A stretch of 63,319 nucleotides of DNA, filler included, from Vermamoeba vermiformis (lineage: Eukaryota): the NCBI GenBank assembly GCA_045837725.1. It is 3 parts of 3 records of this genome, joined end to end, with 100 filler letters (N's around TTAATTAATTAA, not from the genome) between each part and the next. Parts side by side here need not be neighbours in the genome. Positions count along the whole stretch, not along the records: positions 24,628 to 55,420 come from JBEWZL010000058.1; 2 more parts are not named here. One strand, given 5' to 3'. Position 1 is the first letter of the stretch, and every line of letters starts with the position of its first letter. A program made the position numbers and the translations under genes. Below, in pieces: positions 3,096 through 55,520 of the stretch. The notes under the pieces were generated by a model that worked only from the letters and a program-made list of their open reading frames with translations, was not told where the DNA came from and did not search any database.

Positions 3096-6000
3096 TTACA
3101 TTTTGTTATTCTCCATATACTTGTCCAATATGTCGCAAATCTCTTCCATGGTCGGTCTCTGCTCCGGATCGAGACGCCAACACTGCACCATTAATTCTTT
3201 CAAACACGGATCGCAGTCTTCAGGTATGTCAGGAGTGATGCCTTGATCTCTGATTTGCACTCCAATGCTTATTTGATCTGCATCGGCGTGAGGTTCTTTA
3301 CGTGCAACGATTTCGTAAATGACCAAGCCAAAAGTCCACACATCCGATCTGAAAAAGAATTTTGTAAGGAATTTTTCGAGAGTATTATTATAAACGTATT
3401 CGATATTAAAATGCTTACTTTGTACTGTAAGACATGGATTTCAGCGATTCTGGAGACATCCAGCGGATCGGACCAACGTTGGATTTGGTCGTACTTCCTT
3501 TTTTCGCGTCACTCACCAAGCGAGACAAGCCAAAGTCTGATATCTTTGGCTGATTATAGTTCAACAAAATGTTGCGCGCAGAAATGTCACGGTGAATAAT
3601 CTGATTCTTGTGCAGGTGAAACAGACCCTTCGCAATGCCATTCACTGTGCGCAGTTGTTCTGCGACTATCCACGCTTGCTTCGTGTCGAACAGCTTTGTG
3701 TCGAGACTGCCACCGTCACAGTACTCGAGAATCATCACGGGGTAAGGACCATCGGAGGACACTCCAAGCATTTGAACCACGTTTGGATGCGGTCGAAGTT
3801 CACTTCAAAGTAAAGCGTTATTAACCTCTCAAATTAATTGCAACAATGGTGTTGATAATGCTATACTAATGCGACTTACACCATGAGTTTGGCCTCTCGT
3901 TCAAAGTCAGCACCAGTCGCGGAAGTGTTGATCTTCAGTGCTACTTTCACTCGTTGCCACTCTATTCAATAACAAACTATTAGTCTCTTATTCATTTATA
4001 ATATAGTGAGTGGCGAGTAGGATCGATTAATTACCTCCAATGAATACTTTGCCGTACGCACCAGCACCGATCTCCGTTAAGAACTTCAGCTCGGCATAAG
4101 GCACGTTCAGTTTGTCCACTGCTCGCGAACTCTTCAACGCACCACTTGCCCCGCCCTGATTGGTAGATTGAAGCTCTACTTCGTTGGCGGGAATCGATCC
4201 ATAAGCACGCGGGACTGTTGCGTAGTTCGTCTCTCGTGGATTTAGATTCGCATCACTCTTTTCAGCTGTTTGCTTTGCTTCTCGTTCTGCCTTTCGTTTC
4301 TTGCCGAAATAAACAGCCAAAAATATTGCCGCACCGAGGCCGAGCGGACACACCACAAAAATGGCTATGTAATCGTTGGACCAGCCACCCGGTGCTTCTG
4401 CGGTAGGGCCACTAACTTGGTGGTTGGATGGAATATTGGATGGAGCAGCGTCAATAACAATGGTTGTGCATAGCAATTCTATATTAAAACATCGGTTAAA
4501 AATTGTTGAAAACAGGATCTGGTCAGCAAGTAGGTGTCGCGGATCTTTTGCAGGTTTAATAGGCTACACTTCAGTGATAATAGCTCATATAGACGGACAC
4601 CACGATCTTCAGGTTAAAGCGTACCTGTAGAATTCCAAGTTGAGCCTTGAGCGCACGCACAATCCACGCAGTTAACATCCTTTGAATTGTCGCATGTTTC
4701 ATTGCCCGCAACAATATTATCGCCGCAAGCTATAATATTAATACATTAATAACGATGGTAAATGTCTAATAGTTTCCAAAATGTGAACAGAGCCGGATTC
4801 AAATCTGTCGAGAGAGTGTGGACTGAACTTACTAGTCTTGCATGTCTTATAATCTCCCGTGGCGTAATAGCCATCAGTGTTGCTGCACATGCAGTTCACG
4901 CAGCCTGCATTGCCCTGCACACAGTTCTCATTCATCGTTCTTACACCGTCGTCGCAACTTGAAATGATGTAGTAGTTCGTGAACGATGAAGAGCGCTCAC
5001 CAATGCACATTTGAGTGACCGCAAATGATGTCGATGAGAGCGGGGCTATTTGCAGTCGAGCAATGGGAAGTGACGGATCTGCTGCTGGAATCGTGAACTC
5101 GATCGGCGGATTCGTATTGTTATAATCGCTGATTATACCATTAAAGGTACTTGTATTCGAACTACTAGCCCAGGTCGTAATTAATCTTCCGTCAGGCATA
5201 ACATTCGTAGCGATGGCGTAAGTCAAGGCCAGATCTTCGACGGCAGCGAGATCTACCAGTGAAACAGTGCCTTTGTCGACAATATTAACGAATTGTTGTT
5301 TTACTGTTGCGTGCGTCTCATTGATGAGCTGGTACGTTAACGCAATAACGCTGTTACCTAAAAAGGAAACTTAGTATCGAATGTCCATTTTTAGTTCACT
5401 TCAATAGATTAATCATATGCAAGCAGAATATTAATAGCACTACATGTTACTCTATGGTTTGAATAATCGTCATAGTTTTAAAGTATTTGCACGGTCTAGA
5501 AATATTCGCATAAATTAAATTTAAATTTCCTAATTTGGACTCACCAACATAGGTTAATTGAACGTCTATCGGCAAAAACGATGTCGACCACGGAATACTT
5601 GTAATGTTTGTGACCGTCATAATGTCGTCGACTGTTTGAACGAGGATCTCGTACTGGAACTTCGAGATCTTCCAACTATAAGCGAGAATATAGGTATTGA
5701 CTCCTGCATCTGGATATGCCGCAAGTGCTGGGCGAGCAGTAAATACATTGTCTGGAGAGGAGACGATGGAAGTCGATTGGTACCCAAGCGTTGAATCCAC
5801 TAAAAAAAACAAATTAGTACGTTTATATACTCGGACTATTATCGTACCGTCAGCTAATAACATTTTAAATTTTCCTTGAACTGAGTTGGTAAGCATTACT
5901 GCAAGGATTGCCTTCGTACTTGGATGCGCGATTGCGATGGATGTGAGTTCGTTGTTAATTGGGTCATCCGGGAAACTGTTGCCGTTGCTAAGTAGAATAT

Positions 6001-17289: not shown

Positions 17290-19134
17290 ATGGAAAGCGG
17301 TGAGCTTTTCGGACAGCAACATTTCGGCAGTGGAATAAATACCGATCTATTACACTACGTAAGTACAATACTCGTTATTCAGCCAACTCCATTAGTATTT
17401 AAATTATAGTATTTTAAATTCGGTGGAAATTGACAGGCAAAAAATTTCTACGCGACTGCAGTAAAGGCTTTTGCCGAAGGAGATATAGATGCTATTAATA
17501 ATGAAGAAAATATCAGTAAGTAATTATTTCGTATTCAATTACGTTAAACACAAATTTACAACCCGAATCCAGATTCGCAATAAATTTAACTCACTTGTCG
17601 CTCAATTAACCTTAGCGAATTACTAGGCGCCGACGACACGAGCACCAATCAAGGTCAAGATAGCACTGTAATTTCAATCGACTTGTCAAAGCAGCACCAA
17701 ACAATAGAGAATTTTGGCGCATCTGACGCGTGGTCGTGTCAATTCGTTGGTCACTGGCCCGATGCCAAGAGAACAGCCATGGCAGATCTGCTGTTTAGCC
17801 TGGAGACTACTTCCATAGGCCAACCTAGCGGCATCGGCCTCTCATTATGGAGGTTCAATCTTGGAGCTGGAAGTGCGCAGCAAGGCGACAACAGCGGAAT
17901 AACTGACGAGTGGCGCAGAGCCGAGTCATTCATCGGCAAGAACGACGAGTATGAATGGGACCTGCAGGTCGGTCAAATGTGGTTCTTAAAGGCTGCCAAA
18001 GATCGCGGCGTCGAGAAGTTTTTGGCATTTTGCAACAGCCCTCTCGTTAGCTTAACTAAAAATGGAAAAGCGTTTGCAACAGCAGGCCAACCGAATTTGG
18101 CAAAAGAGAACTTCGACGCGTTTGCGGATTACTTGGTGAATGTCGTGAAGGGCGTCAAGAACAAATTTGGGGTGACATTCGATTACCTTAGTCCCGCGAA
18201 TGAGCCGCAATGGGATTGGGGTGGTGGACAAGAAGGCACGCCGTTCACAAACGAAGACATTACGGGCATTGTCACCGCACTCGACGCGGCTATCACACGC
18301 GAGCAGATCGCAACTAAAATCACCATCGTGGAAGCAGGCCAATACAACTTTCTATATTCAGCGCACGGCAAGCCTCGCAGGGGCAACCAAATCGATGCGT
18401 TTTTCACGCCTGGCCCTGTGTTCATTGGAGATTTGCCCTCAGTCGAACAAGTCATCATGGGCCACGGCTATTTCACGACATCACCGTACAATGCAGCAGT
18501 TCAAGTGCGAAGAAAGCTGCATCACAAAGTAAAACAAGTGAATGGCTTGAGACTGTGGCAGTCAGAGTATTGCATTTTAGGCGATAACAATGGCGAAATC
18601 AACGGCAGTCATCGAGATCTTGGCATCAAACCTGCAATCTACCTCGCACGCGTGATTCACAACGATCTCGTCAATGCAAATGCCTCAGCGTGGCATTGGT
18701 GGACAGCGATATCAGCCTATGACTACAAAGACGGGTTGATTTACGTCGACAAGAACAAAACGGATGGCAATTTTGAAGCGAGCAAAATGTTGTGGGCCCT
18801 AGGAAACTTTAGCCGATTCATTCGCCCAGGCGCAGTGCGTGTATCGACAACGATGTCAAATCAATCTGATGTGTTGTCCTCTGCATTCGTGAACAAGACA
18901 GGCGAGTTGGTTGTTGTGCTGATTAATCCGACTTTGAAAACCAAAGAAGTGAAACTCAATTTGACTGGTGCGACATTTCAATCAGCGACTGCGTACGTCA
19001 CATCTAGCAGTACGGATCTGTATCCATTTGCGATTTCAAACTCAGCTGAGCCAATGCATTTAGAGGCCCTTAGCATCACTACAGTTGTGTCAAAATTAAC
19101 ATTGCCGAGCTCATACCGGTGTTGTTTGCTGTAA
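17290..19134 (+). CDS. Glycoside hydrolase family 30 (bacterial-type, Glyco_hydr_30_2-like); 5' start uncertain
   Basis: Uninterrupted ~490-aa exon with QTIENFGASDAW, GIGLSLWRFNLGAGS, WRRAE, acid/base NEP, nucleophile WQSEY, and WALGNFSRFIRPGAVRV. Two short upstream exons can splice in frame. Confidence 0.88.
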
Positions 19135-20963: not shown

Positions 20964-22690
20964 GGACTCAAGTTGTTTGATAAACAGCCTCCAAGCAGTA
21001 TTTTTTTTGGCAAACTGAAGTTAAAGTAGATTATTAGACATCCAATGACATCACTATAATAGTGGGTAATCTTAAATCATAGGTGAATATTCAAAATTTG
21101 CAATTCAAATGGTTTTTTTGCTGGATCTGCTAAATTTATTGACCAAACAGGCAATATAAGACATCCCTATAGTATATACTATTAGTATAGGATGTAAATA
21201 TAATAGATAAACTCAAAACATATGAAGAGGAAGCAACCCTGCACTTGGGTAATCAACTGGAGCTGAAATGCAATCGATGCAATCAAATGCAATCAAATGA
21301 AATCGAATGAAATTTTGCAATGTGCAAGACTAGGCAGCTAGGATTTTGGGCACCTAGGATTCCAGGCACCTTGTTTTACCTGTCTGGGCACCTAGAATTC
21401 CATGGGCACCTACTGGGCACCTAGGATTCCGTGAGTGGGCACCTAGAATTCCGGGCACCTAGGATTCCGTGAGTGGGCACCTAGAATTCCGTGAGTGGGC
21501 ACCTAGGATTCCGGGCACCTAGAATTCCGTGACTGGGCACCTAGGATTCCGGGCACCTAGAATTCCGTGACTGGGCACCTAGAATTCCGGGCACCTAGGA
21601 TTCTGTGGCTGGGCACCTAGGATTCCGGGCACCTAGAATTCCTGTGAGTGGGCACCTAGGATTCCGGGCACCTAGAATTCCATGGCTGGGCACCTAGGAT
21701 TCCGGGCACCTAGAATTCCGTGACTGGGCACCTAGAATTCCGGGCACCTAGAATTCCGTGACTGGGCACCTAGAATTCCAGGCACCTAGGATTCCGTGAC
21801 TGGGCACCTAGGATTCCGGGCACCTAGAATTCCTGTGAGTGGGCACCTAGAATTCCATGGCTGGGCACCTAGGATTCCGGGCACCTAAATTTCCGTGGGC
21901 ACCTAAATTTCCGTGGGCACCTAAATTTCCGTGAGTGGGCACCTAGGATTCCGGGCACCTAGGATTCCGTGACTGGGCACCTAGAATTCCGGGCACCTAG
22001 AATTCCGGGCACCTAGGATTCCAGGCACCTAGGATTCCGGGCACCTAGAATTCCGGGCTCCTAGGATTCTGTGGCTGGGCACCTAGGATTCCAGGCACCT
22101 AGGATTCTGTGTCTGGGCACCTAGAATTCCGGGCACCTAGAATTCCGGGCACCTAGGATTCTGTGGCTGGGCACCTAGGATTCCGTGGACTCAAGTTGGT
22201 GGATAAACAGCCTCCAATAAGTATTTTTTTGGCAAACTGAAGTTAAAGTATATTATCAGACATGTAGTAGCATCACTATAATCATTAGATATCTTAAATC
22301 ATAGGTACATATTCAAAACTTGCAATTCATGGAGTTTTTTTACTGGATCTGCTAAAATTTTGATGAAACATGCTATATATGATATCCCTATAGTATCTAC
22401 TATCAGTATAGGATGTAAATATAATGGCCAAACTCAAATGATACAAGAAGGATGCTAGGTGGTGCTTGTGTAGGCCACTGGAGCTGAAATGCAATCGACG
22501 CAATCGAATGCAATCAAATGAAATCGAATGAAATTTTGCATTGAGCAAGACTAGACAGCTATGAGTTTGGGCACTTTGGATTCCAGGCACCTTGTTTTAC
22601 CTGTCTGGGCACCTAGAATTCCTTGGGCACATGCTGGGCACCTAGGATTCCATAAGGAGAGGGGTACCCTGTTGGGCACCTAGGATTCCA
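20964..22690 (+). repeat. Two ~400-bp imperfect direct repeats (starting 20964 and 22187), each followed by satellite units
   Basis: The block ggactcaagtt...taaacagcctcc...caaactgaagttaaagta...aaatcgaatgaaattttgca...caccttgttttacctgtctgggcacctagaattcc is present twice. Confidence 0.9.
21348..22186 (+). repeat. Tandem satellite of the 16-bp unit GGGCACCTAG(G/A)ATTCC with optional ~6-bp spacers (GTGAGT/GTGACT/GTGGCT/ATGGCT)
   Basis: Dozens of near-identical units read directly. Confidence 0.97.
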
Positions 22691-23124
22691 TGACTGGCTG
22701 CCTACTATTTTGGACACCTAGGATTCTGAGGATCTTGAATTCCAATAGCTGAGAGAGTGGTTGGAGAGGGTACCCCTCTCCTTAGGACTTGGGTGAAAAA
22801 AGAATAAAAAATAATTGCATACAGTGGGTTTTGAACCTGCTCCAGGTAAAAAGCATTTTAAACTGCCATATTCAAAAACTTGCAATTGATGAAGCAACCT
22901 TAGTAGTTAACAGAATTGATGGCGGTTTGCTTTGTTAGGCTCCTAATATCATGTATTTTCATTGCCAATCAAAAAAGCTGGAGTTCTGGTTGAAAAGTTT
23001 TCATTCATGAAAAACTAGCTGTTACAAATCACAAAACAATTTTTTTTGTCCAAGTCATTTTGTTGTTTTTTTAAAAACACAGCACCACAAGGGAACCCTT
23101 TTTAAATTTTAAATTGATACTATA

Positions 23125-24527: not shown

Positions 24528-24626
24528 NNNNNNNNNNNNNNNNNNNNNNNNNNNNNNNNNNNNNNNNNNNNTTAATTAATTAANNNNNNNNNNNNNNNNN
24601 NNNNNNNNNNNNNNNNNNNNNNNNNN
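24528..24626. other. Assembly gap with artificial TTAATTAATTAA spacer
   Basis: N runs flanking ttaattaattaa. Confidence 0.98.
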
Positions 24627-25207
24627 NGTAACAATAAAATTACGTTTTTCAACATAGAACGACCACACTTATATCTTAAAGTTATATTTCTGTACAAAGT
24701 GGTCCCTGAATTGACGGCAATTGATGCGAAGTGCCGTAACTTTTGGTTGGTAAGCCAGATGCTGGATTTGTTTTTTCTGATCTTCGCATCACAACAAAAT
24801 TAACGACTAATTCCATCGCGATAAATCATAATATTAATAATAGAGTGCCTCGTAAGCAATTACAAGCACTTTTGAATTATTTTGAATTATTTTTTAAAAT
24901 TAACGCCTCCGATCTGTTCGGCCATTGTGCTGCAACTATTCGGGTCGTACTTTCGATTTGTAACACTCTTATTAATACAATCTTATTGATAGGTGTGCGA
25001 CTTCATATTGAGAAGATTTTGTACAGGCGATTTAGGGGACCCGGACTCTATTGTTTGAGTTTTTTCTGCCATCTTTGTAAACAAATTCCAGTAAATTTCG
25101 CACAATAGTGGTGAGTTATTATCACTTTATACATGGCTAATGATTACTCAGTTTATTTTTGATGTGTTAGATCCGAACCACACGCGACCTCGAAAAGTGC
25201 CTCGGCA

Positions 25208-28145
25208 ATGGCCAAAGTAGTAAACCTTGGTGCCACATGCTACATTAGCAGTTCTTTACAGCTATTATTTAGTATTGAAGCTTTCCGTGAGCTTGTTATA
25301 TCATCAAAACCTACACACAAACTTGCGATTGAATTTCGACAGATTATCACACTTATGAAGAGTAATAAAACAATTCATATCGAACCATTAACAAGGCTAT
25401 TGAAAATATCAAAAGCAAGCTACCAAAAAGAACACCGTGATTTACAAGAGTTTCTGCTCAATTTATTGGACAAGTTAACTGAAGACTCTGAGTTCAAGCG
25501 AATTATAAAGCAAGTTTTTGGTGGTGCCTTACAACGTAATGGTTCAGAATTAATGGAGCCTTTTATAGGTACAAATGACTGCTGCAACTCGACTTAATTT
25601 CAATTGACTTTATAATTTAGATATTTCAATTCCAGTTGCCCCCGGCAATGTTGTGGACAGTTTAGTTCAACTTTTCAGCAGTGTACGTAACATTTGCATA
25701 AGACTTGGATTTTAACTTATTCAATGATAAGGACTGGGGTTCACACAAATTTTTGACATTCCCCACTGCATTAGTCCTCCACCTTAAGCGTTTTGATAAT
25801 CTGGGCAACAAGAATGAAGCGAAGTTTCACTTCAAGTCAACTCTAGTTATTCCAGCAAAGCTCAGTTGTAGTGGTCATGCAGAGACCTACCAACTCAAAT
25901 CAATAATAGTGCACCAAGGAACTGCTAAACAGGGTCACTACGTAACCTACAGCCTTGCGAACAACCAATGGCTTGAACTCAATGATGCAGTCGTCTCAAA
26001 GGTAGTCAAAGTATGCCATTTTGCAGGTTCTAACCTCAATGTAGGCTCCCAAAGACTTCATGCAGAGGTTATTTGAGGGAATTGCAAGTGCTTATATCTT
26101 AGTGTACTGCACACAGCGTATTTCATCCCCAACCAAGTCCAGACCCACACGAATTATTGGAAATGAATCACAGCAATTTAATGATTTTATGGAATGGGAC
26201 TCAACATCATGTCAAAGTGATCCAATAGAGATATCAGATAGTGAATATGAAGCAAACGAAAGTGATGATATGAGTGAATCAATTGAAGAAGATAATGAAG
26301 AGACATCAGAAGTCGCAAGTCCTGCAGCAGTGAAAGAAGGTATTGATTTCTCATTCATTAATCATTTTGATAACCATTACTGGCAGCTAAACTTCAAGCA
26401 AAACTGTCTGGGTGGAAAAACGATGGGAGTAAATTCAAGCCCAAAACTTCTCAACCATTGACAAACCCAGGACCAAAGCACCAGCTCATCTTAACAAAAA
26501 TTAATGCAATACGTCATCAACTGGGAAAGCCAAAACTGTCTTCAACACTACGTGTCACAGAGCTTGACTGTTACTTACTTATGATGAATGACATAATTGA
26601 ACATATTGAAAAAACAACAGATGCAAATCTGCACATCAAAGCAGTCGATTTGCGCGCTTATCTTGGTGTTAGAATTGCACAACAATTATTGCCAGGTCAT
26701 TCTGTTGATGACTCTTGGGCCTCCTTTTTGCATTCACGCGCCATGTGGGGCAACAGGTGGATTGCTAAAACAATGCTAAAAGATGAATTCAAGTTTATAC
26801 ACCGGAACAAAAAGTAAGTTCGTTGTTCACTCACTGTAATGGTTCTTACCTTTGGTCTTAGGTATGATGTGTACTTTGTTTGGGCAGCTCTGAATCAAAC
26901 CTACTCAGAAATATGGGTGCCATTCAGCCACCTTGCTTTAGATGATAAAGCAAATGCTTGGAAAGGAAGGTCAATTTACAAGATTTACAGATTACGCAAG
27001 CCATTCCCTTGGGCAATGTTAGAATATGTCATTATTGATGAAAGTGGATGGATGTCTGGCTTCATTCCTCGATATGGACTGTTTGCTACCATAACAGACA
27101 AGTTCAAGAAATGGCGAGAGTTATATCACGCCTTCAAAACAGGTCAACTTTCGCAAAGACCTCTACCATTTAAAACAATGTTTCCACGAGCATCAAAGAC
27201 AAATTTCGATTTGGAAAAAGCCGTCAGTTTTTTATTGTCAAGACTCCCTGACAAACAAAGGCACGTTTATGACTTTATTAGAGAACCCACAAATTATGAA
27301 GAATGGAACAATCTGACAACTCGAAACTTATCACACTATCATGTATTTTGTGACAGAGAGTTTTCCTCACTATGGCAGCACCTGCAAAAGCACAATATTG
27401 GATACACTGTTGGCATTATTGGAACATCACACCCTAACCTGTTTCAAAACAACCTTGCTCATTGTTTACAGCCAGGACAATGGCGCAGCTTAACAAACGA
27501 CTCAGATATCATCATGTCATTCTATGACCCTCAAGGCAAGACCTGTCACTGGGCTAGTAATCGAGGAACAGCAGCCTCAATTTCTGAAAAAGTAATTGAT
27601 GGAAACAAAAAGAAAAAGCTTGCATACTCTGCTCCCCACTTGGTGCAACAATATCGGACATACTTCAGTTCTGTGGATAAGCATAACTCCAAAGCCAAGA
27701 AGTTTAAGTGGCCCTACCGGATTCGAAAAGTAACAGAGCGCTTAGTATTTGCAGATTGGGAGCGCTCTGCTCAAGTTCAGGCAGAAACACTCTTCAAAAG
27801 ACTCACCAACAGTGATATTCCTGCCAAGAAATTTCTTGCCAATTTAGCGCGCTCCCTGGTAGAGGAATTCCAATCAAAAAGGAAACGAAACTACACAATA
27901 GAAGCGTTAGATCTTGTGCGCGCCAGTGGAAAGCATAATCCATACACCCACACCTGTGCGTACGAATTTGGCAACTCCAAGCGTTGTTTCTTTTGTCAAA
28001 CTCAAAAGATATCTTCTTCTACACTGTAAGTATGTGTAGGTGTACTTTTGTCAAACTAATTAATTGCCTTAGCTACAAGTGCATTCAGTGCAAAGTTGCC
28101 TTACACAAGAAGTGCTGGAAGAAATTCAAAGGTGTAAATCTTTAA
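25208..28145 (+). CDS. USP (peptidase C19) deubiquitinase fused to a piggyBac-like DDD transposase (multi-exon)
   Basis: USP: NLGATCYISSSLQ Cys box, DLQEFL, LVLHLKRF, IIVHQG...GHY...W..LND His box, AYILVY. Intron 26340-26386 joins in frame to a piggyBac core: LALDD...WKGRS..K.Y...KP, HVFCDREFSS, P.LV..Y......VD, and a C-terminal Cys-rich domain (RCFFC...KCIQCKVALHKKC). Confidence 0.82.
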
Positions 28146-28183
28146 GTTTTGTACAAGGAGTTATCAGTTAACTATTGTGTGAA

Positions 28184-28451
28184 TAGCATGTAACACGTTG
28201 TGGTGTAGCATGAGCACGAAAGTGCCTGAGGCGGCTTTGACGCAAAAAACCTCGTGTGTAGGCACTGAGAGTTTGGGGATAGTCAGCTTGCTTCAGATTT
28301 ATTCACATAATCACCTGCTAGGCTAACTGTTAGTAGCATGTAACACGTTGTGGTGTAGCATGAGCACGAAAGTGCCTGAGGCAGCTTTGACGCAAAAAAC
28401 CTCGTGTGTAGGCACTGAGAGTTTGGGGATAGTCAGTTTGCTTCAGATTTA
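28184..28451 (+). repeat. Subterminal direct repeat: two near-identical ~118-bp copies with a 150-bp period
   Basis: tagcatgtaacacgttgtggtgtagcatgagcacgaaagtgcctgag...cttcagattta at 28184 and 28334. Confidence 0.95.
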
Positions 28452-28557
28452 CTCAACAGACGATAGCCTGGGCTACTATTGAGCTTATTTATGAGAAATG
28501 GGAGCAGCCATGTCCAAATTCTGGTACGTCTACCGTGTAGACTTCCAGTTGGTTAAG

Positions 28558-28730
28558 GAATATTGTCATTAATATAATAATCCATCCAGAAGGAGCACGA
28601 GTCGATATTAAGAACAATGAGGGCGAGGCCCCGATCGACATTCTGCCAAATCTGCTCCAACTGGACAGATCTCTTGTGCGATTGGTGAAAGAACGAAGAG
28701 ACAAAAAATTAATGGCAACAGTACCCCAAT
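28558..28730 (+). pseudogene. Orphan 3' end of an F-box/ankyrin gene paralog
   Basis: Near-identical to 33483-33660 (GxRVDIKNNEGEAPIDILPNLLQLDRSLVRLV); upstream part replaced by the piggyBac-like element. Confidence 0.85.
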
Positions 28731-28972
28731 CAACGGAACATTCATCCGTGTCTCAAACAACATTCGCATTCTAATGACGTGCGTGTTTGGATCCTCTACC
28801 AGGTTTAGAAGAATAATGAACACGAACAAACATGTTTCAGGTACTTGAGACTATTTACGTAGTTCATTACTGTAACGAGGGGTATCAATTAAATTTTAAC
28901 GAAAATGGCGCCAAACAAACTTGACGTCAATGTGACACGCCAGAAGTGCCATAGTCCCATTTTTTGACCACT

Positions 28973-31900
28973 ATGGAACCAACAGCAGATGCTACCGTCG
29001 ATTTAATCGATGATTTATGGTGTAGAATATTCAATGGTTTGGACTGCAAGTTGAGGGCTTCACTCTTCCAGGTAATCCGGATGTGATCTGCCAGCAGGGA
29101 ACCCAATTCGCAAATTGATTATTTTCCGTAATATATTTTGGGTTTAAATAATTTTCTATGTTAATCAGAGGGAAATCTTAATTTATTCTTGTTATTAATT
29201 TTGTATTTCAAAAGGTTTGCAAGCGGTGGAAGACGGTCGCATCCAACCTCCGTTGTTGGACAACACTGGATGTCGAATTTCATACTCAATCAGAGCCAAG
29301 ATTAAGCAAAATAGTAGCTTCGTTTTGTCAATTCATAACCAACTACTGCTCGATGGCGACGCACGTGTGCATTGCAAAAAAAGGCGCTGATCATTTTTGG
29401 ACGATTCTAATGACCTTGTTTCCACTTCGGCAACTGCGATATTTAAAGATCTACGTCGACAGCAGAGACTACCGCGCTCGCCAAACCTTTGGATCTGCTA
29501 CGTTTCCAAAGCCTGATTGGTCGAATCTGATTTATCTCAACTTGAATTTACCACCGTACAATATCTCTATCGACGGCCGGCAATGGGAGAGATTAACAGA
29601 GGTACGCTTCATTAATTAGGGTGTTCATTGTTTAATTAATTTAATAAGGGAGCCCCTAATCTTGAAGAGCTATATTTAAGTTGCACAGCAGTGGCAATGG
29701 GGAATCAAACTGCGCTGCTCAAAGGCTTGCAAAACCTTCAAAAACTGAAGATATTGTACGCGGACTGGCACCAGAGTATCGACAACGATACTATTGTAAA
29801 GCATGTGCCTCAGCTACAAATGCTAATTTCTTCCGCGTCTCAAAATGATCAACGAGGCAATTTTTTCAACCAGCCGATGTTTGGAGGTCCAATTCCATTC
29901 GGAGGTCCTCCGCAACCTATTGGCACACAAAACCAATCAAATGGTCCCAAGTACATCGGCAGCACTCTTGCGATTAGTTGCGATATGTTGCGGTCACGTG
30001 ACTTGGAGATTGTGAAGAAGTTTGGGCACGTGCTATCGAAATCAAACTACGCTTTCTACTTCTCCGAGCAATTGGCCACTATTGAACCCCCTGCACCAAT
30101 GAGTGTACCTTTATTGCACTACTTGTTTAATGACCTGAAGCTGGATATCAACTGCTGCACAACTCGAAGATCCGATCCGTTCGCTGTGGATTTGGTCCCA
30201 GCATTATTACCACCCTTGGCGGTAAGAATACCCACCATCGAAACATAATAGTTACTAATTGTTATTGCCAGTGGTATCCGCTAAATACAGTTCTGGATGA
30301 CGTTGAACTGGTTCGAATTCTATTGGACTTCGGAGCAGATCCGAACTACCCAGCTGAAGGAGACTCACCATTAGGATTCCACAAAACTTCCAAAGAAAGT
30401 TGTATTCTTCTACTTGAGTACGGCGCAGATCCCCTGAAGAAAGTTGAAGGGTTGGCCGTAATGCGACGTTGGTTTGACATGTACTCCGATGCGGGTATAT
30501 TGCTCTACTATTTAGTTGCAAATAATCGGTGCTTAATTAATTTGTGCCATTTTCAGAACTTATGGACGTGCTACTCGTTGCGTTAAACAAAGGTTTGGAC
30601 ATCAATCAGATTCTTGACGGATCTGACACAATTCTTGACGTATGTAATCTGGTATAATAATTTCTCTTATTGCAGTGCCTAATGATTCATTCTAGCTCGC
30701 GATCGCACGTAGACATAAGCATACTGCTCAAGAGCTGCTGAAACTTGGAGCTCGTTGGACTCCTCCTTCGATGGACAAACTGATACTTTGGGACTCTAAT
30801 TGGGTGTGTTATTCATAAACCAACGAACTGCTATACCTCATGATAATTAATACCAATTTGTAGTGGTCTGAAGTAATCCAAAGTGGTGGTTTTGATGTTA
30901 GCCAATTACTTCTCAGCACTGCGTTGACAGCCGTCAAGTTGCGTCTTTATCCAATGGTGTAAGTACTCACATACCGCATATCTTTCCGAAGAGTAGCTCT
31001 ATAATACAAAATATCTAATTTTTTTTTACGGCATGAAAGTCGAAAGTTCCTTCAAGATTTTCCGCGCGATCTTGATGAGCAAAATGGCTTCAGTTTAACA
31101 CACTACATTTCATTACTGTTGCAAAGCAATACATACGGTTTAAACAGAAAAGTCAACCAAAAAAAAGAATTCTTTGGATTTGGTGCACGTCCTACGACAG
31201 CCTCTAAAAAATCGTTCGAGGAAGTCAAAATTGAGTCGTCATCAACGGAATGGCAGTTATTGGGCCAAATGATCACCGAACTCAATCTTGACGTCAATAT
31301 GAAGACATCTACTGGCAAGACACCGTTGTTGTTAGTGTGCGAGAGTGAAAACCAAGTAGACGCTACCTTGAAGACATTAATCGAAATGGGTGCAAATGTC
31401 AATGAGCCAGTAAGACCTATCGCCGAGTAAAGGCGCTCAAGTATATACTTTCTGATGTCAAAATCGTAGGATCTTAATGGATGGACGCCACTCCACGCAG
31501 CTTGTTTTGGAGGCCACTACAGTACGATGCAGCTGTTACTGTCGCACGGGGCAAACATCAACGCACAAGATAAGCTTGGCCTCACCCCTATTATGGCAAG
31601 GGTATTATCGTCACAGCATGGAGCCCTATCGGATTTTATTGCCGTTGATTTCGACGTAACGCTCAAAGATAAGGTTGGTTCAGATCTTTCAAAAAGTTCA
31701 TTCTAACGAACTCTCAGTACACTCATCGAGCGATCTTGCACTTTCTCGCTGCTGTTGGGGCATATCAAGAGATTGCAATTCTATTGGATAAGAAGCCTGA
31801 GCTTGATATCAACTGTCGGTAAGTGCCGTACAAACGATTACATTTTCGTGACTTTTACACTTAGTGACGTACACGGGTTTACTCCGCTTCATTATGCAGC

Positions 31901-33638
31901 AAAAGTAGGACACAACGACACGATGAAGTTGCTCGTTGAACGTGGTGCAGATGTGAATGCCATGAGCAACACTTTGGCTTTGACACGTACGCACAAATAC
32001 CTTATGAACTGATTCTGACGGTTAATTTGACAGCTATTGCGGTGTATTTAGCAAAGCACAATCCAAAACATCCATATCATCAGTACATCGAAACGTACAT
32101 GAATATCGAGGCTACTACTGGTCATGTCATTGATGTTTATGTAGGAGCCAAGGAGTAAGTGGATCTTGTGCTACTTACGACACTAACGACAAATTAAAGA
32201 GTTGGATCTCTTTGCAAGCTTACGCTAGCGCCTTGGACCGTAGCTAGTGGTATTAATAACGGGCGAGTGTAAGTTCGGCAAAAGGAAATTCGTGGGTGCT
32301 AACACATTCAGTTTTCGATCGTCTCCGCCCAGTTCTGGCGACAACCATTTTCTGCCATGGCCCACGAATTTATCGCTAAATGATCCGTTTGGAAACAACT
32401 TGTTGCACATAGTACGTTTTTTTTTCTGGTTTTACACGGATCTTGTACATCTAACGGTCGTCACTTTTACAAAGCTTGTTAGAACACATTGCGTAGCGTC
32501 TCTCATCAAGGAAGAACCAGAATTTGCGGAGTTTCACAAACTGTGGTCGAAACCAAACAAGCGCGGAACAACGCCATTCCACTTGTAAGATCCGAACTAA
32601 CCTTTTCGAATCTCGAACTAACGTTATGTTTAGATTTGCCATGGATAATCAGTAAGTATATTTGGGTCATACAGGTTCTCTATTAATGTTTTGTAGGCTG
32701 TCACAGTTTGACAAGAATAATGAAATCGAATTTGTCAACAGTTTTATGATTTCACAACAACGCGAGCTGCTCTATAGCTTTAACAATAAGGATGAGCACG
32801 GCAAGACTGCTCTTGATTATTTTTTTTGCCATTCAAGTGTTCACCAGATCGCGGCAACGCTGGACGAGATCCAAGGTACCAACTGCGATCTGTTGGTTTT
32901 TCAAATTTAGCTGATAAGTACTATTATAGGTATCAATTTCGTGAGTCCTTCGGTCTATTCTCAACCCACTTCGTTGCTTCATTCGGCGGTCAGTGGTGCA
33001 ACTTTGACCAAAACTTTGTTGATGAGAGTCGCCAAGATGGATTCCAATGCGTTGAATATGAAAATCAACGGAAAAACGCCATTTATGATCTTTATCGAAA
33101 AGGTAAGCAGTTTATGGCTAAAATGTTGCGCTTCAGAAAAGTACTCTAACTTTACTATGCAGCTGTTAACCGGCAATTTCAATGAGCAGCAAAGTGCGTT
33201 GTTGGATTGTTTCCTAGAATGCAAAGGTACTCGTGCGTATCGATTTAGCTTGGATATTCGAAACTGACACTTGTTTCTCAGTGGATCTGAACGCTCAAGA
33301 CAACGAAGGAAACACTGCTCTCCATTACGCATGCTACTTCTTCCATCTTGGTGCTTGGGATTATTACATGCAAAGTAATGCACTGGACGAATCATCTGTG
33401 TTCAGTGTGACCTTATTCAAGCTTCTTGAAGGTAAAAACTGAGAGCGAGCAGATCTTCATTTTTTCTTACTACTTGCCCGAATATATTGTTATTAATATC
33501 ATAATCCATCCAGGAGGAGTACGAGTCGATATTAAGAACAATGAGGGCGAGGCACCGATCGACATTCTGCCAAATCTGCTCCAACTCGACAGATCTCTTG
33601 TGCGATTGGTAGAAGAGCAAAAACGAGACAAAACTTAA
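28973..33638 (+). CDS. F-box / LRR-like / ankyrin-repeat protein (many exons)
   Basis: F-box DLIDDLWCRIF..L...VCKRWK, LRR-like LEELYL and LQKLKILY, and multiple ankyrins (GKTPLLL, GWTPLHAA, GFTPLHYAA...LLVERGADVN, GNTALHYAC). Confidence 0.8.
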
Positions 33639-34061
33639 TGCGACAATATTATCCAATCGCTGAATCGGAACGTAATAAAAACTGGATTAGCACGTTGGTA
33701 AAATACTTGCAGTCGTAAAACGAAAATTGGCAATTCGATTCTGAAGTCGAAACAATAGAATACCGACTGGCTATTTTAAGCTGCATGTTGTCAATATAGT
33801 TATCGCGAGGTCGACTTGATATATGTAAGTTAATACTATAACGTTATAGTCACGTGTTTTCTATAGTCACGTGTTTTCTATAGTCACGTGCTTCACAAGA
33901 AACAACAAATTTTTTGATTAGTTTATTTTTAAAGCTGATGGAGAACAATAACGACGACGAAGAAATATTTGAAATATTATTCAGAGTGTGGGAAAACGGC
34001 AAACCAACGTATTTAACTGATAGATGCTTGTTGCGGCTTTTTGGTGTACGAACAATTAGTG

Positions 34062-55420: not shown

Positions 55421-55520
55421 NNNNNNNNNNNNNNNNNNNNNNNNNNNNNNNNNNNNNNNNNNNNTTAATTAATTAANNNNNNNNNNNNNNNNNNNNNNNN
55501 NNNNNNNNNNNNNNNNNNNN
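55421..55520. other. Assembly gap with artificial TTAATTAATTAA spacer
   Basis: N runs flanking ttaattaattaa. Confidence 0.98.

Follow-up and report, generated by a model that had tools for sequence, protein, structure and literature searches.

The window analysed here, a stretch of 63,319 nucleotides (nt, filler included) from Vermamoeba vermiformis (assembly GCA_045837725.1), raises at positions 25208-28145 a double question. Are a ubiquitin-specific protease (USP) and a piggyBac transposase encoded there as one protein, as an earlier note had proposed from the sequence alone, and does the gene belong to a mobile element or has it become a stationary gene of its host? The answer that we favour, with a probability of roughly 0.6, is that one real and expressed gene encodes an 883-residue protein, predicted to be bifunctional, and that this is a low-copy, stationary piggyBac-derived gene in which the fusion is old and has been kept by selection. 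Both enzymatic activities are predicted from the sequence.

The gene lies on the plus strand of the contig that occupies positions 24628-55420 (JBEWZL010000058.1), 580 nt from the contig start. It comprises seven coding exons and 883 codons with no internal stops and runs from an ATG at 25208, preceded in the spliced 5' untranslated region (UTR) by in-frame stops just 5' of it, to a TAA at 28143-28145. The six coding introns all have GT..AG ends and are 43-52 nt long. With the ATG and the TAA placed, the boundaries given in the earlier note (25208-28145) prove exact, and the intron that it had put between the two domains at 26340-26386 is, as it said, 47 nt long and in phase 1, with GT..AG ends. 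It was right about this linking intron but left five further coding introns unnamed, three of them inside the USP part.

Two sources outside the window are used throughout. X8 is a run guessed to be RNA and kept as contigs that are at least 99% identical to the window. L001 is a metagenome contig of 4379 nt, the only close one of three loci obtained from 166 pattern matches; the two others (L002 and L003) are distant or short. The features of the locus, all on the plus strand, are as follows.

24663-24749, plus strand: first 5' UTR exon; the transcript starts at or before 24663 and the contig at 24628; an X8 contig joins it to the next exon.
24993-25110, plus strand: second 5' UTR exon; X8 record 1 reaches its end at 25110, and a 60-nt GT..AG intron (25111-25170) follows.
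25171-25568, plus strand: exon 1, with 37 nt of 5' UTR and then the ATG at 25208; USP Cys box, C11 codon at 25238-25240; Pfam UCH 7.2e-16, USP34 7.3e-10.
25621-25682, plus strand: exon 2, 62 nt, the short middle of the USP domain; joint 25682 to 25732 seen in X8; kept in L001.
25732-26001, plus strand: exon 3, USP His box, with the H210 codon at 25936-25938 and N225/D226 at 25981-25986; Pfam UCH 2.7e-17; joint 26001 to 26045 seen in X8.
26045-26339, plus strand: exon 4, the last USP strand up to about 26116 and then the acidic linker.
26340-26386, plus strand: intron 4, the linking intron, 47 nt, GT..AG, phase 1; the L001 counterpart is 43 nt and the frame is restored there too.
26387-26813, plus strand: exon 5, piggyBac N-terminal region, opening with a GWKNDG motif common to stand-alone relatives; 59% identity to L001.
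26862-28025, plus strand: exon 6, piggyBac RNase H-like core (predicted), with D499 at 26941-26943, D636 at 27352-27354 and D744 at 27676-27678, followed by one half (the first) of the Cys-rich domain; joint 26813 to 26862 seen in X8.
28073-28145, plus strand: exon 7, which completes the Cys-rich domain and carries the TAA stop.
25569-25620, 25683-25731, 26002-26044, 26340-26386, 26814-26861 and 28026-28072, plus strand: the six coding introns, of 52, 49, 43, 47, 48 and 47 nt.
28178-28477, plus strand: two tandem units of about 150 nt, 3' of the stop, conserved and apparently structured.
28525-28563, plus strand: last conserved block, with a short hairpin inside; similarity to L001 stops here and an X8 contig departs at 28564.

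Much of the case for the gene comes from the comparison with L001. This contig has the same seven exons, keeps all six intron positions and phases, and encodes 887 amino acids, with intron lengths (44, 54, 39, 43, 46 and 48 nt) that differ from those in the window. Every USP and piggyBac motif is retained. Protein identity is 58% overall, with 50% in the USP part, 39% in the linker, 59% in the piggyBac N-terminal region, 65% in the core and 83% in the tail. An independent contig that repeats both the exon structure and the motifs, at 58% identity, puts the agreement far beyond chance. Synonymous sites are saturated (pS about 0.8; third positions 42% identical) and nonsynonymous differences (pN) reach 0.345 in the USP part, 0.289 in the piggyBac N-terminal region and 0.226 in the core; the linker is near neutral (pN 0.46, pS 0.55). 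Judged by these values, both domains are under purifying selection, and the pairing of USP and piggyBac looks old and functional.

The USP part, residues 1 to about 255, is predicted to be a minimal deubiquitinase of the USP type (C19). In a Pfam scan of six separate exon translations, UCH (PF00443, cut-off 23.9 bits) exceeds its threshold in two of the six pieces, exon 1 (59 bits, 7.2e-16, model positions 3-129 of 254) and exon 3 (63.6 bits, 2.7e-17, positions 142-236), so that the model is covered from position 3 to position 236. The solved structure closest in sequence to exon 1 is the catalytic domain of USP34 (7.3e-10). For exon 3, Ubp8 is the best among the matches listed (3.7e-07), with 64 distinct PDB sequences at E<=0.01. 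The catalytic residues are present as C11 in NLGATC, H210 in GHY and N225/D226 in ELND, and L001 keeps all of these motifs despite an identity of only 50% in this domain. The domain has no insertions and lacks cysteines where many USPs carry a zinc ribbon, and its matches point to no particular USP subfamily. Because the core is so unusually short and free of insertions, its substrate preference is uncertain.

The USP part ends in exon 4, which it shares with the beginning of an acidic stretch (residues 257-335, 79 amino acids, the last five in exon 5) with 20 Asp or Glu residues and 6 Lys or Arg. Beyond it, exon 6 scores 43.4 bits (E 3.5e-11) with the Pfam transposase family DDE_Tnp_1_7 (PF13843), whose cut-off is 22.4 bits; exon 5, at 15.2 bits, stays below that threshold. 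The piggyBac catalytic aspartates are present as D499 in LDDK, D636 in CDREF and D744 in VDKHN, and their columns hold Asp in 29, 29 and 30, respectively, of 30 aligned piggyBac relatives. For reference, the excerpted text of PMC5381638 numbers the aspartates of Trichoplusia ni piggyBac as D268, D346, D447 and D450. The fourth acidic position is occupied here by N747. We considered this Asn as a mark of domestication and rejected it: the same column has Asn in 10 of the 30 relatives (Asp in 19, Gly in one), so N747 is not diagnostic.

An AlphaFold2 model of exon 6 built with 30 aligned relatives (mean predicted local distance difference test, pLDDT, 83; predicted TM-score, pTM, 0.82) replaced an earlier model from eight sequences (pLDDT 54.7), which was discarded. 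A Foldseek comparison of the model with the PDB returns eight matches at E<=0.001. The piggyBac strand-transfer complex (6x67_C, 1.8e-12) is first and piggyBat (9c0f_C/D, 2e-11) is second and third, these top three having E values of 1.8e-12 to 5.8e-11, probability 1.00 and TMq 0.47-0.55; ranks four to eight are Tn5 chains. The exon 6 core is thus predicted to have the piggyBac RNase H-like fold with its insertion domain. Identity in the fold alignments to the solved piggyBac and piggyBat structures is 13-15%, and a phmmer comparison with piggyBat gives an E value of only 0.12, although the alignment still sets the three Asp motifs opposite each other. Residues 830-874 form a His/Cys-rich tail with regular spacing which, at 83% identity to L001, is the best-conserved region of the protein; Pfam zf-Tnp_2 does not match it, and exon 7 has weak matches of C1, PHD and RING type (about 1e-3). 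By its sequence, the piggyBac part is a complete but very divergent transposase.

The domain claims of the earlier note therefore fare well. The USP Cys, His and Asp/Asn motifs that it called intact are all there, with UCH above its cut-off, as are the acidic linker, the three-Asp core and the Cys-rich tail, and both DDE_Tnp_1_7 and the predicted fold agree with them. Its identification of a piggyBac transposase is borne out by Pfam, the fold and the triad of aspartates (DDD); the ends of a mobile element were found neither in the window nor in L001.

The gene is spliced and expressed, as seen in the RNA-like X8 contigs. These show the joints 24748/9 to 24992/3, 25682 to 25732, 26001 to 26045 and 26813 to 26862. 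The first of these skips a 5' UTR intron of 243 nt with GT..AG ends. In addition, the loose end of X8 record 1 consists of 14 letters identical to 25171-25184, that is, to the exon that follows the 60-nt 5' UTR intron. Splicing is in this way supported for five of the eight introns (coding introns 2, 3 and 5 and the two in the 5' UTR). The three raw RNA runs labelled with the same species name (X20-X22) yielded no reads over 4561 bases, which counts as no test.

The family is extremely rare in public data. In an exhaustive HMMER search of 1.84 billion representative sequences with exon 6, 37 proteins were found at E<=1e-3 and six at E<=1e-30. DDE_Tnp_1_7 (E<=0.01) is present in 33 of the 37 and UCH in none, although many of them are single frames on metagenome contigs, so that upstream exons would escape notice. 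Three of the relatives (P0004, P0006 and P0008; 24-31% identity) are complete, uninterrupted frames of 588-648 amino acids starting from a Met, and they are free of UCH. As these relatives have neither introns nor a USP, the fused clade appears to have gained both. A word-based search for proteins of near length among 5.8 billion sequences retrieved two clusters, P0001 (the exon 6 frame of L001 itself) and P0002 (53% identity). Word-based searches among longer proteins gave nothing with exon 6 and no relative with USP exon 1, scans of genome contigs and of viral contigs for relatives gave nothing, and the ESM Atlas contains only ordinary piggyBac clusters, all from Eukaryota and none with UCH. 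A literature search on piggyBac combined with deubiquitinase, UCH, USP or protease found the fusion unreported, the supplementary tables of PMC12062965 and PMC5381638 lying outside that search. The remark that a USP on piggyBac is an unfamiliar architecture agrees with its absence from the 37 relatives and from the literature searched. What appears to be new, then, is a USP-type deubiquitinase in a complete piggyBac enzyme; the known kind to which it belongs is that of transposase-host domain fusions and piggyBac-derived genes. Such fusions are a known route to new genes.

Whether the gene still moves is a question on which the evidence is divided, and part of that evidence lies 3' of the stop codon. 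The two tandem units at 28178-28477 are 96% alike, and L001 has the same pair, again two 150-nt units, at 3491-3790. The region aligns between the window and L001 although the synonymous sites of the coding region are saturated. RNAalifold, applied to the four copies, gives a structure of 36 pairs in which 98.6% of the cells are paired. In 12 of the 36 pairs both sides have changed, compared with one to four in six slid controls, and for four of five measures none of 500 shuffles reaches the observed value (80 of 500 for the fifth); these figures come from only four sequences (two species), and it is from these four that the structure itself was derived. Its numerous G-U pairs suggest the plus strand, on which the gene also lies. 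A covariance model of the unit found no further copy in the window or the loci, Rfam has no family at E<=1 over 24628-30000, and X8 depth over 28178-28477 is nil. We regard the region as a candidate structured 3' UTR element or non-coding RNA.

The last conserved block (28525-28563; 3813-3851 in L001) contains a hairpin, GTCTAC..GTAGAC, which in L001 has a 7-bp version. We had considered this block, with its 90% match, as the first exon of a neighbouring gene shared by the two organisms. This reading has been withdrawn because L001 lacks the ATG and the GT there and nothing similar lies beyond the block. Immediately to the right, a 155-nt segment (28560-28714) duplicates 33484-33640 at 90%, a region that holds the end of an intron and the last coding exon of an ankyrin-repeat gene. 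The copy of this gene end starts exactly where the conserved unit ends. Three causes are conceivable for the switch of flanks after the last block: splicing at the GT at 28565, a rearrangement, or the terminus of a mobile element.

The last of these possibilities leads to the rival that survives best: that an autonomous piggyBac-like transposon, present in few copies, encodes its transposase here, with the USP as an accessory domain and the right end at 28563. Several observations support it and weigh against a stationary gene. As in active elements, the DDD triad is intact and conserved, and so is the Cys-rich tail; active transposon lineages, too, show purifying selection between species. 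The match of the window to L001 breaks off sharply at 28563 (3851 in L001), with unrelated flanks on both sides. An X8 contig that is 99% identical to the window departs from it at 28564, and the 30 letters that follow in the contig are absent from the window, whether sought whole or in two parts. The conserved unit therefore ends sharply at 28563/4, with three different right flanks in the window, L001 and X8. No flanking similarity between the window and L001 was found upstream of the ATG or past 28563, in a comparison of short contigs at deep divergence. The upstream sequence amounts to only 580 nt in the window, where the 5' UTR fills it, and 522 nt in L001, so that a 5' terminal repeat could lie beyond the contig. 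A transposon is also favoured by the window sequence that starts at 28560, which copies 33484-33640 at 90%, as if the unit sat inside a duplicated gene fragment.

Other observations speak against a transposon. No pair of TTAA-flanked inverted repeats with at least 10 of 13 matches was found among the TTAA sites searched (6 x 25 in the window and 5 x 9 in L001). The 20-mer at the right end has no inverted copy in the window with up to three mismatches, and L001 shows no convincing inverted repeats. The sole TTAA near the end continues with seven identical letters in both species, and that TTAA is thus no junction. The break in the X8 contig could be a mere splice, given the GT at 28565-28566. 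Six conserved introns interrupt the coding region and two more the 5' UTR, the 63 kb of the window contain the gene once, and the near-length search retrieved only two related clusters among 5.8 billion sequences, an extreme rarity in public data. We consider an autonomous transposon unlikely, although it has a real chance of being correct. The gene is most likely stationary, or domesticated, in the manner of PGBD5, PiggyMac and CSB-PGBD3.

A second rival is that a hypothetical intron has falsely joined two adjacent genes, one for a small USP and one for a piggyBac transposase. It draws on the RNA-like contigs, which nowhere cover the linking intron: X8 depth is nil over 26172-26528, which spans it, and introns 1 and 6 are likewise uncovered. 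This gap also counts against the fused protein that we favour. Moreover, without splicing the USP frame would just stop after another 41 codons in the window. Against two genes, retention would end the frame in L001 as well, at a TAA within the intron, removal of the intron restores the frame in both species, and the lengths removed (47 nt in the window, 43 nt in L001) differ by no multiple of three. The piggyBac part alone would also lack a start codon before residue 66 of exon 5, which is the earliest Met there in the window, and in neither species does a Met come ahead of the conserved N-terminal motif of that exon. Residues 9-65 of the exon show conservation and can be aligned with the N-terminal part of P0004, P0006 and P0008. 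X8 depth, finally, is comparable on the two halves of the gene (2.0-2.9 and 2.9-7). The restored frame in L001, the stops in the retained intron and the missing Met together make two separate genes very improbable. We infer that the linking intron is spliced, and there is a high probability, from the sequence comparison, that the fusion is real. The claim of a single fused protein accordingly holds as regards UCH and DDE_Tnp_1_7 in one predicted spliced frame that is conserved in L001. The seam between the domains may sit inside exon 4 and not at the intron, since a charged stretch of low complexity precedes the motif in the stand-alone relatives as well.

The remaining rival, a decaying transposon relic without present function, is hardly credible: it has the rarity in public data in its favour and nothing more, and is opposed by frames of 883 and 887 codons intact in two lineages, by pN well below pS in both domains and by a gene that is expressed and spliced.

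If one bifunctional protein is made from a stationary gene, as we favour, its parts could work together as follows. The piggyBac module, from its N-terminal region through the RNase H-like core to the putative zinc-finger tail, would bind DNA and probably cleave it. The fast-evolving acidic linker (about residues 256-335) would act as a flexible tether, and the tethered USP would strip ubiquitin, or a modifier resembling it, from targets in cis or close by. These might be the enzyme itself, chromatin or ubiquitinated histones, or repair factors recruited to the break. For the USP the earlier note had suggested protection of the transposase from proteasomal turnover or deubiquitination of chromatin at target sites. 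A bolder proposal is that the gene and its conserved 3' end (the two plus-strand structured RNAs and the terminal hairpin block, ending sharply at 28563) form one functional unit in a little-sampled eukaryotic lineage, an active piggyBac nuclease with a built-in deubiquitinase and its own right-end RNA, the unit being either a new kind of mobile element or a machine for programmed DNA rearrangement. We judge this improbable; were it true, DNA cleavage would be coupled to the removal of ubiquitin and possibly to an RNA cofactor.

The pairing of USP and piggyBac appears to have been kept under selection across a divergence that saturates synonymous sites. If both halves are active, ubiquitin signalling would be tied to DNA cleavage or transposition in one polypeptide, which bears on the control of piggyBac-type enzymes and on the handling of ubiquitinated chromatin or repair factors. 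The USP core of about 255 residues is also of interest in its own right as a minimal deubiquitinase.

The window is a chain of three contigs separated by two linkers (24528-24627 and 55421-55520), each with TTAATTAATTAA (12 bases) between two runs of 44 N. Anything left of 24528 or right of 55520 consequently need not be a neighbour of the gene. On another contig, 17590-19131 (plus strand) is an uninterrupted frame of 514 amino acids encoding a full glycoside hydrolase of family 30 (Glyco_hydr_30_2, 4.7e-151). Such a frame is striking in an intron-rich genome and could be a transferred gene or lie on a foreign contig. Arrays of a unit of about 16 nt (GGCACCTAGGATTCC-like), irregularly spaced, occupy 22001-22215 and 22554-22742. 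Just before a contig end, 23113-24357 (plus strand) is a Lys/Glu-rich frame of 414 amino acids with no Pfam match at 1e-5.

Among known systems, the catalytic domains of USP34, USP25/28, USP12/46, Ubp8 and USP7 resemble the USP part through profile and PDB sequence matches in both halves of the domain; the version here differs in being about 255 residues long, free of insertions and devoid of the zinc-ribbon cysteines. With T. ni piggyBac (6x67) and piggyBat (9c0f) the piggyBac part shares the predicted fold, the Pfam family, the three aspartates, an acidic N-terminal stretch and a putative C-terminal Cys-rich domain. It is distant from both, as the phmmer and fold-alignment values indicate (E 0.12 to piggyBat; 13-15% identity), and its first and second aspartates are about 137 residues apart, compared with about 78 for piggyBat in the alignment. 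The six introns and the N-terminal USP set it apart from these two enzymes; terminal inverted repeats and a TTAA duplication were not found in the window or L001.

Elements that carry proteases acting on protein modifiers are known: Ulp1 (C48) occurs in Mutator-like and other DNA transposons, and OTU in others. Common to these elements and the present gene is a cysteine isopeptidase of the ubiquitin system travelling with a transposase. The difference is that the protease here is a USP (C19) and is part of the same polypeptide as the piggyBac core.

The closest parallels are piggyBac-derived genes. Domesticated piggyBacs are defined by orthology and synteny across species; for the present gene, a comparison of short contigs at deep divergence showed no flanks shared with L001. 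Those with added domains that appear in Table 1 of PMC5381638, as far as the available portion of that paper extends, involve SCAN (PGBD1) and CSB (PGBD3). In the same portion of PMC5381638, PGBD5, PiggyMac and Tpb2 resemble the gene described here in having introns within the transposase-derived part and being under purifying selection, and PiggyMac, Tpb2 and Kobuta in retaining the DDD triad and the Cys-rich tail. The likeness to PGBD1 and CSB-PGBD3, on the basis of that partial text (PMC5381638), is that a piggyBac body is spliced downstream of a domain that does not come from a transposon; the partner here is a USP deubiquitinase instead of SCAN or CSB.

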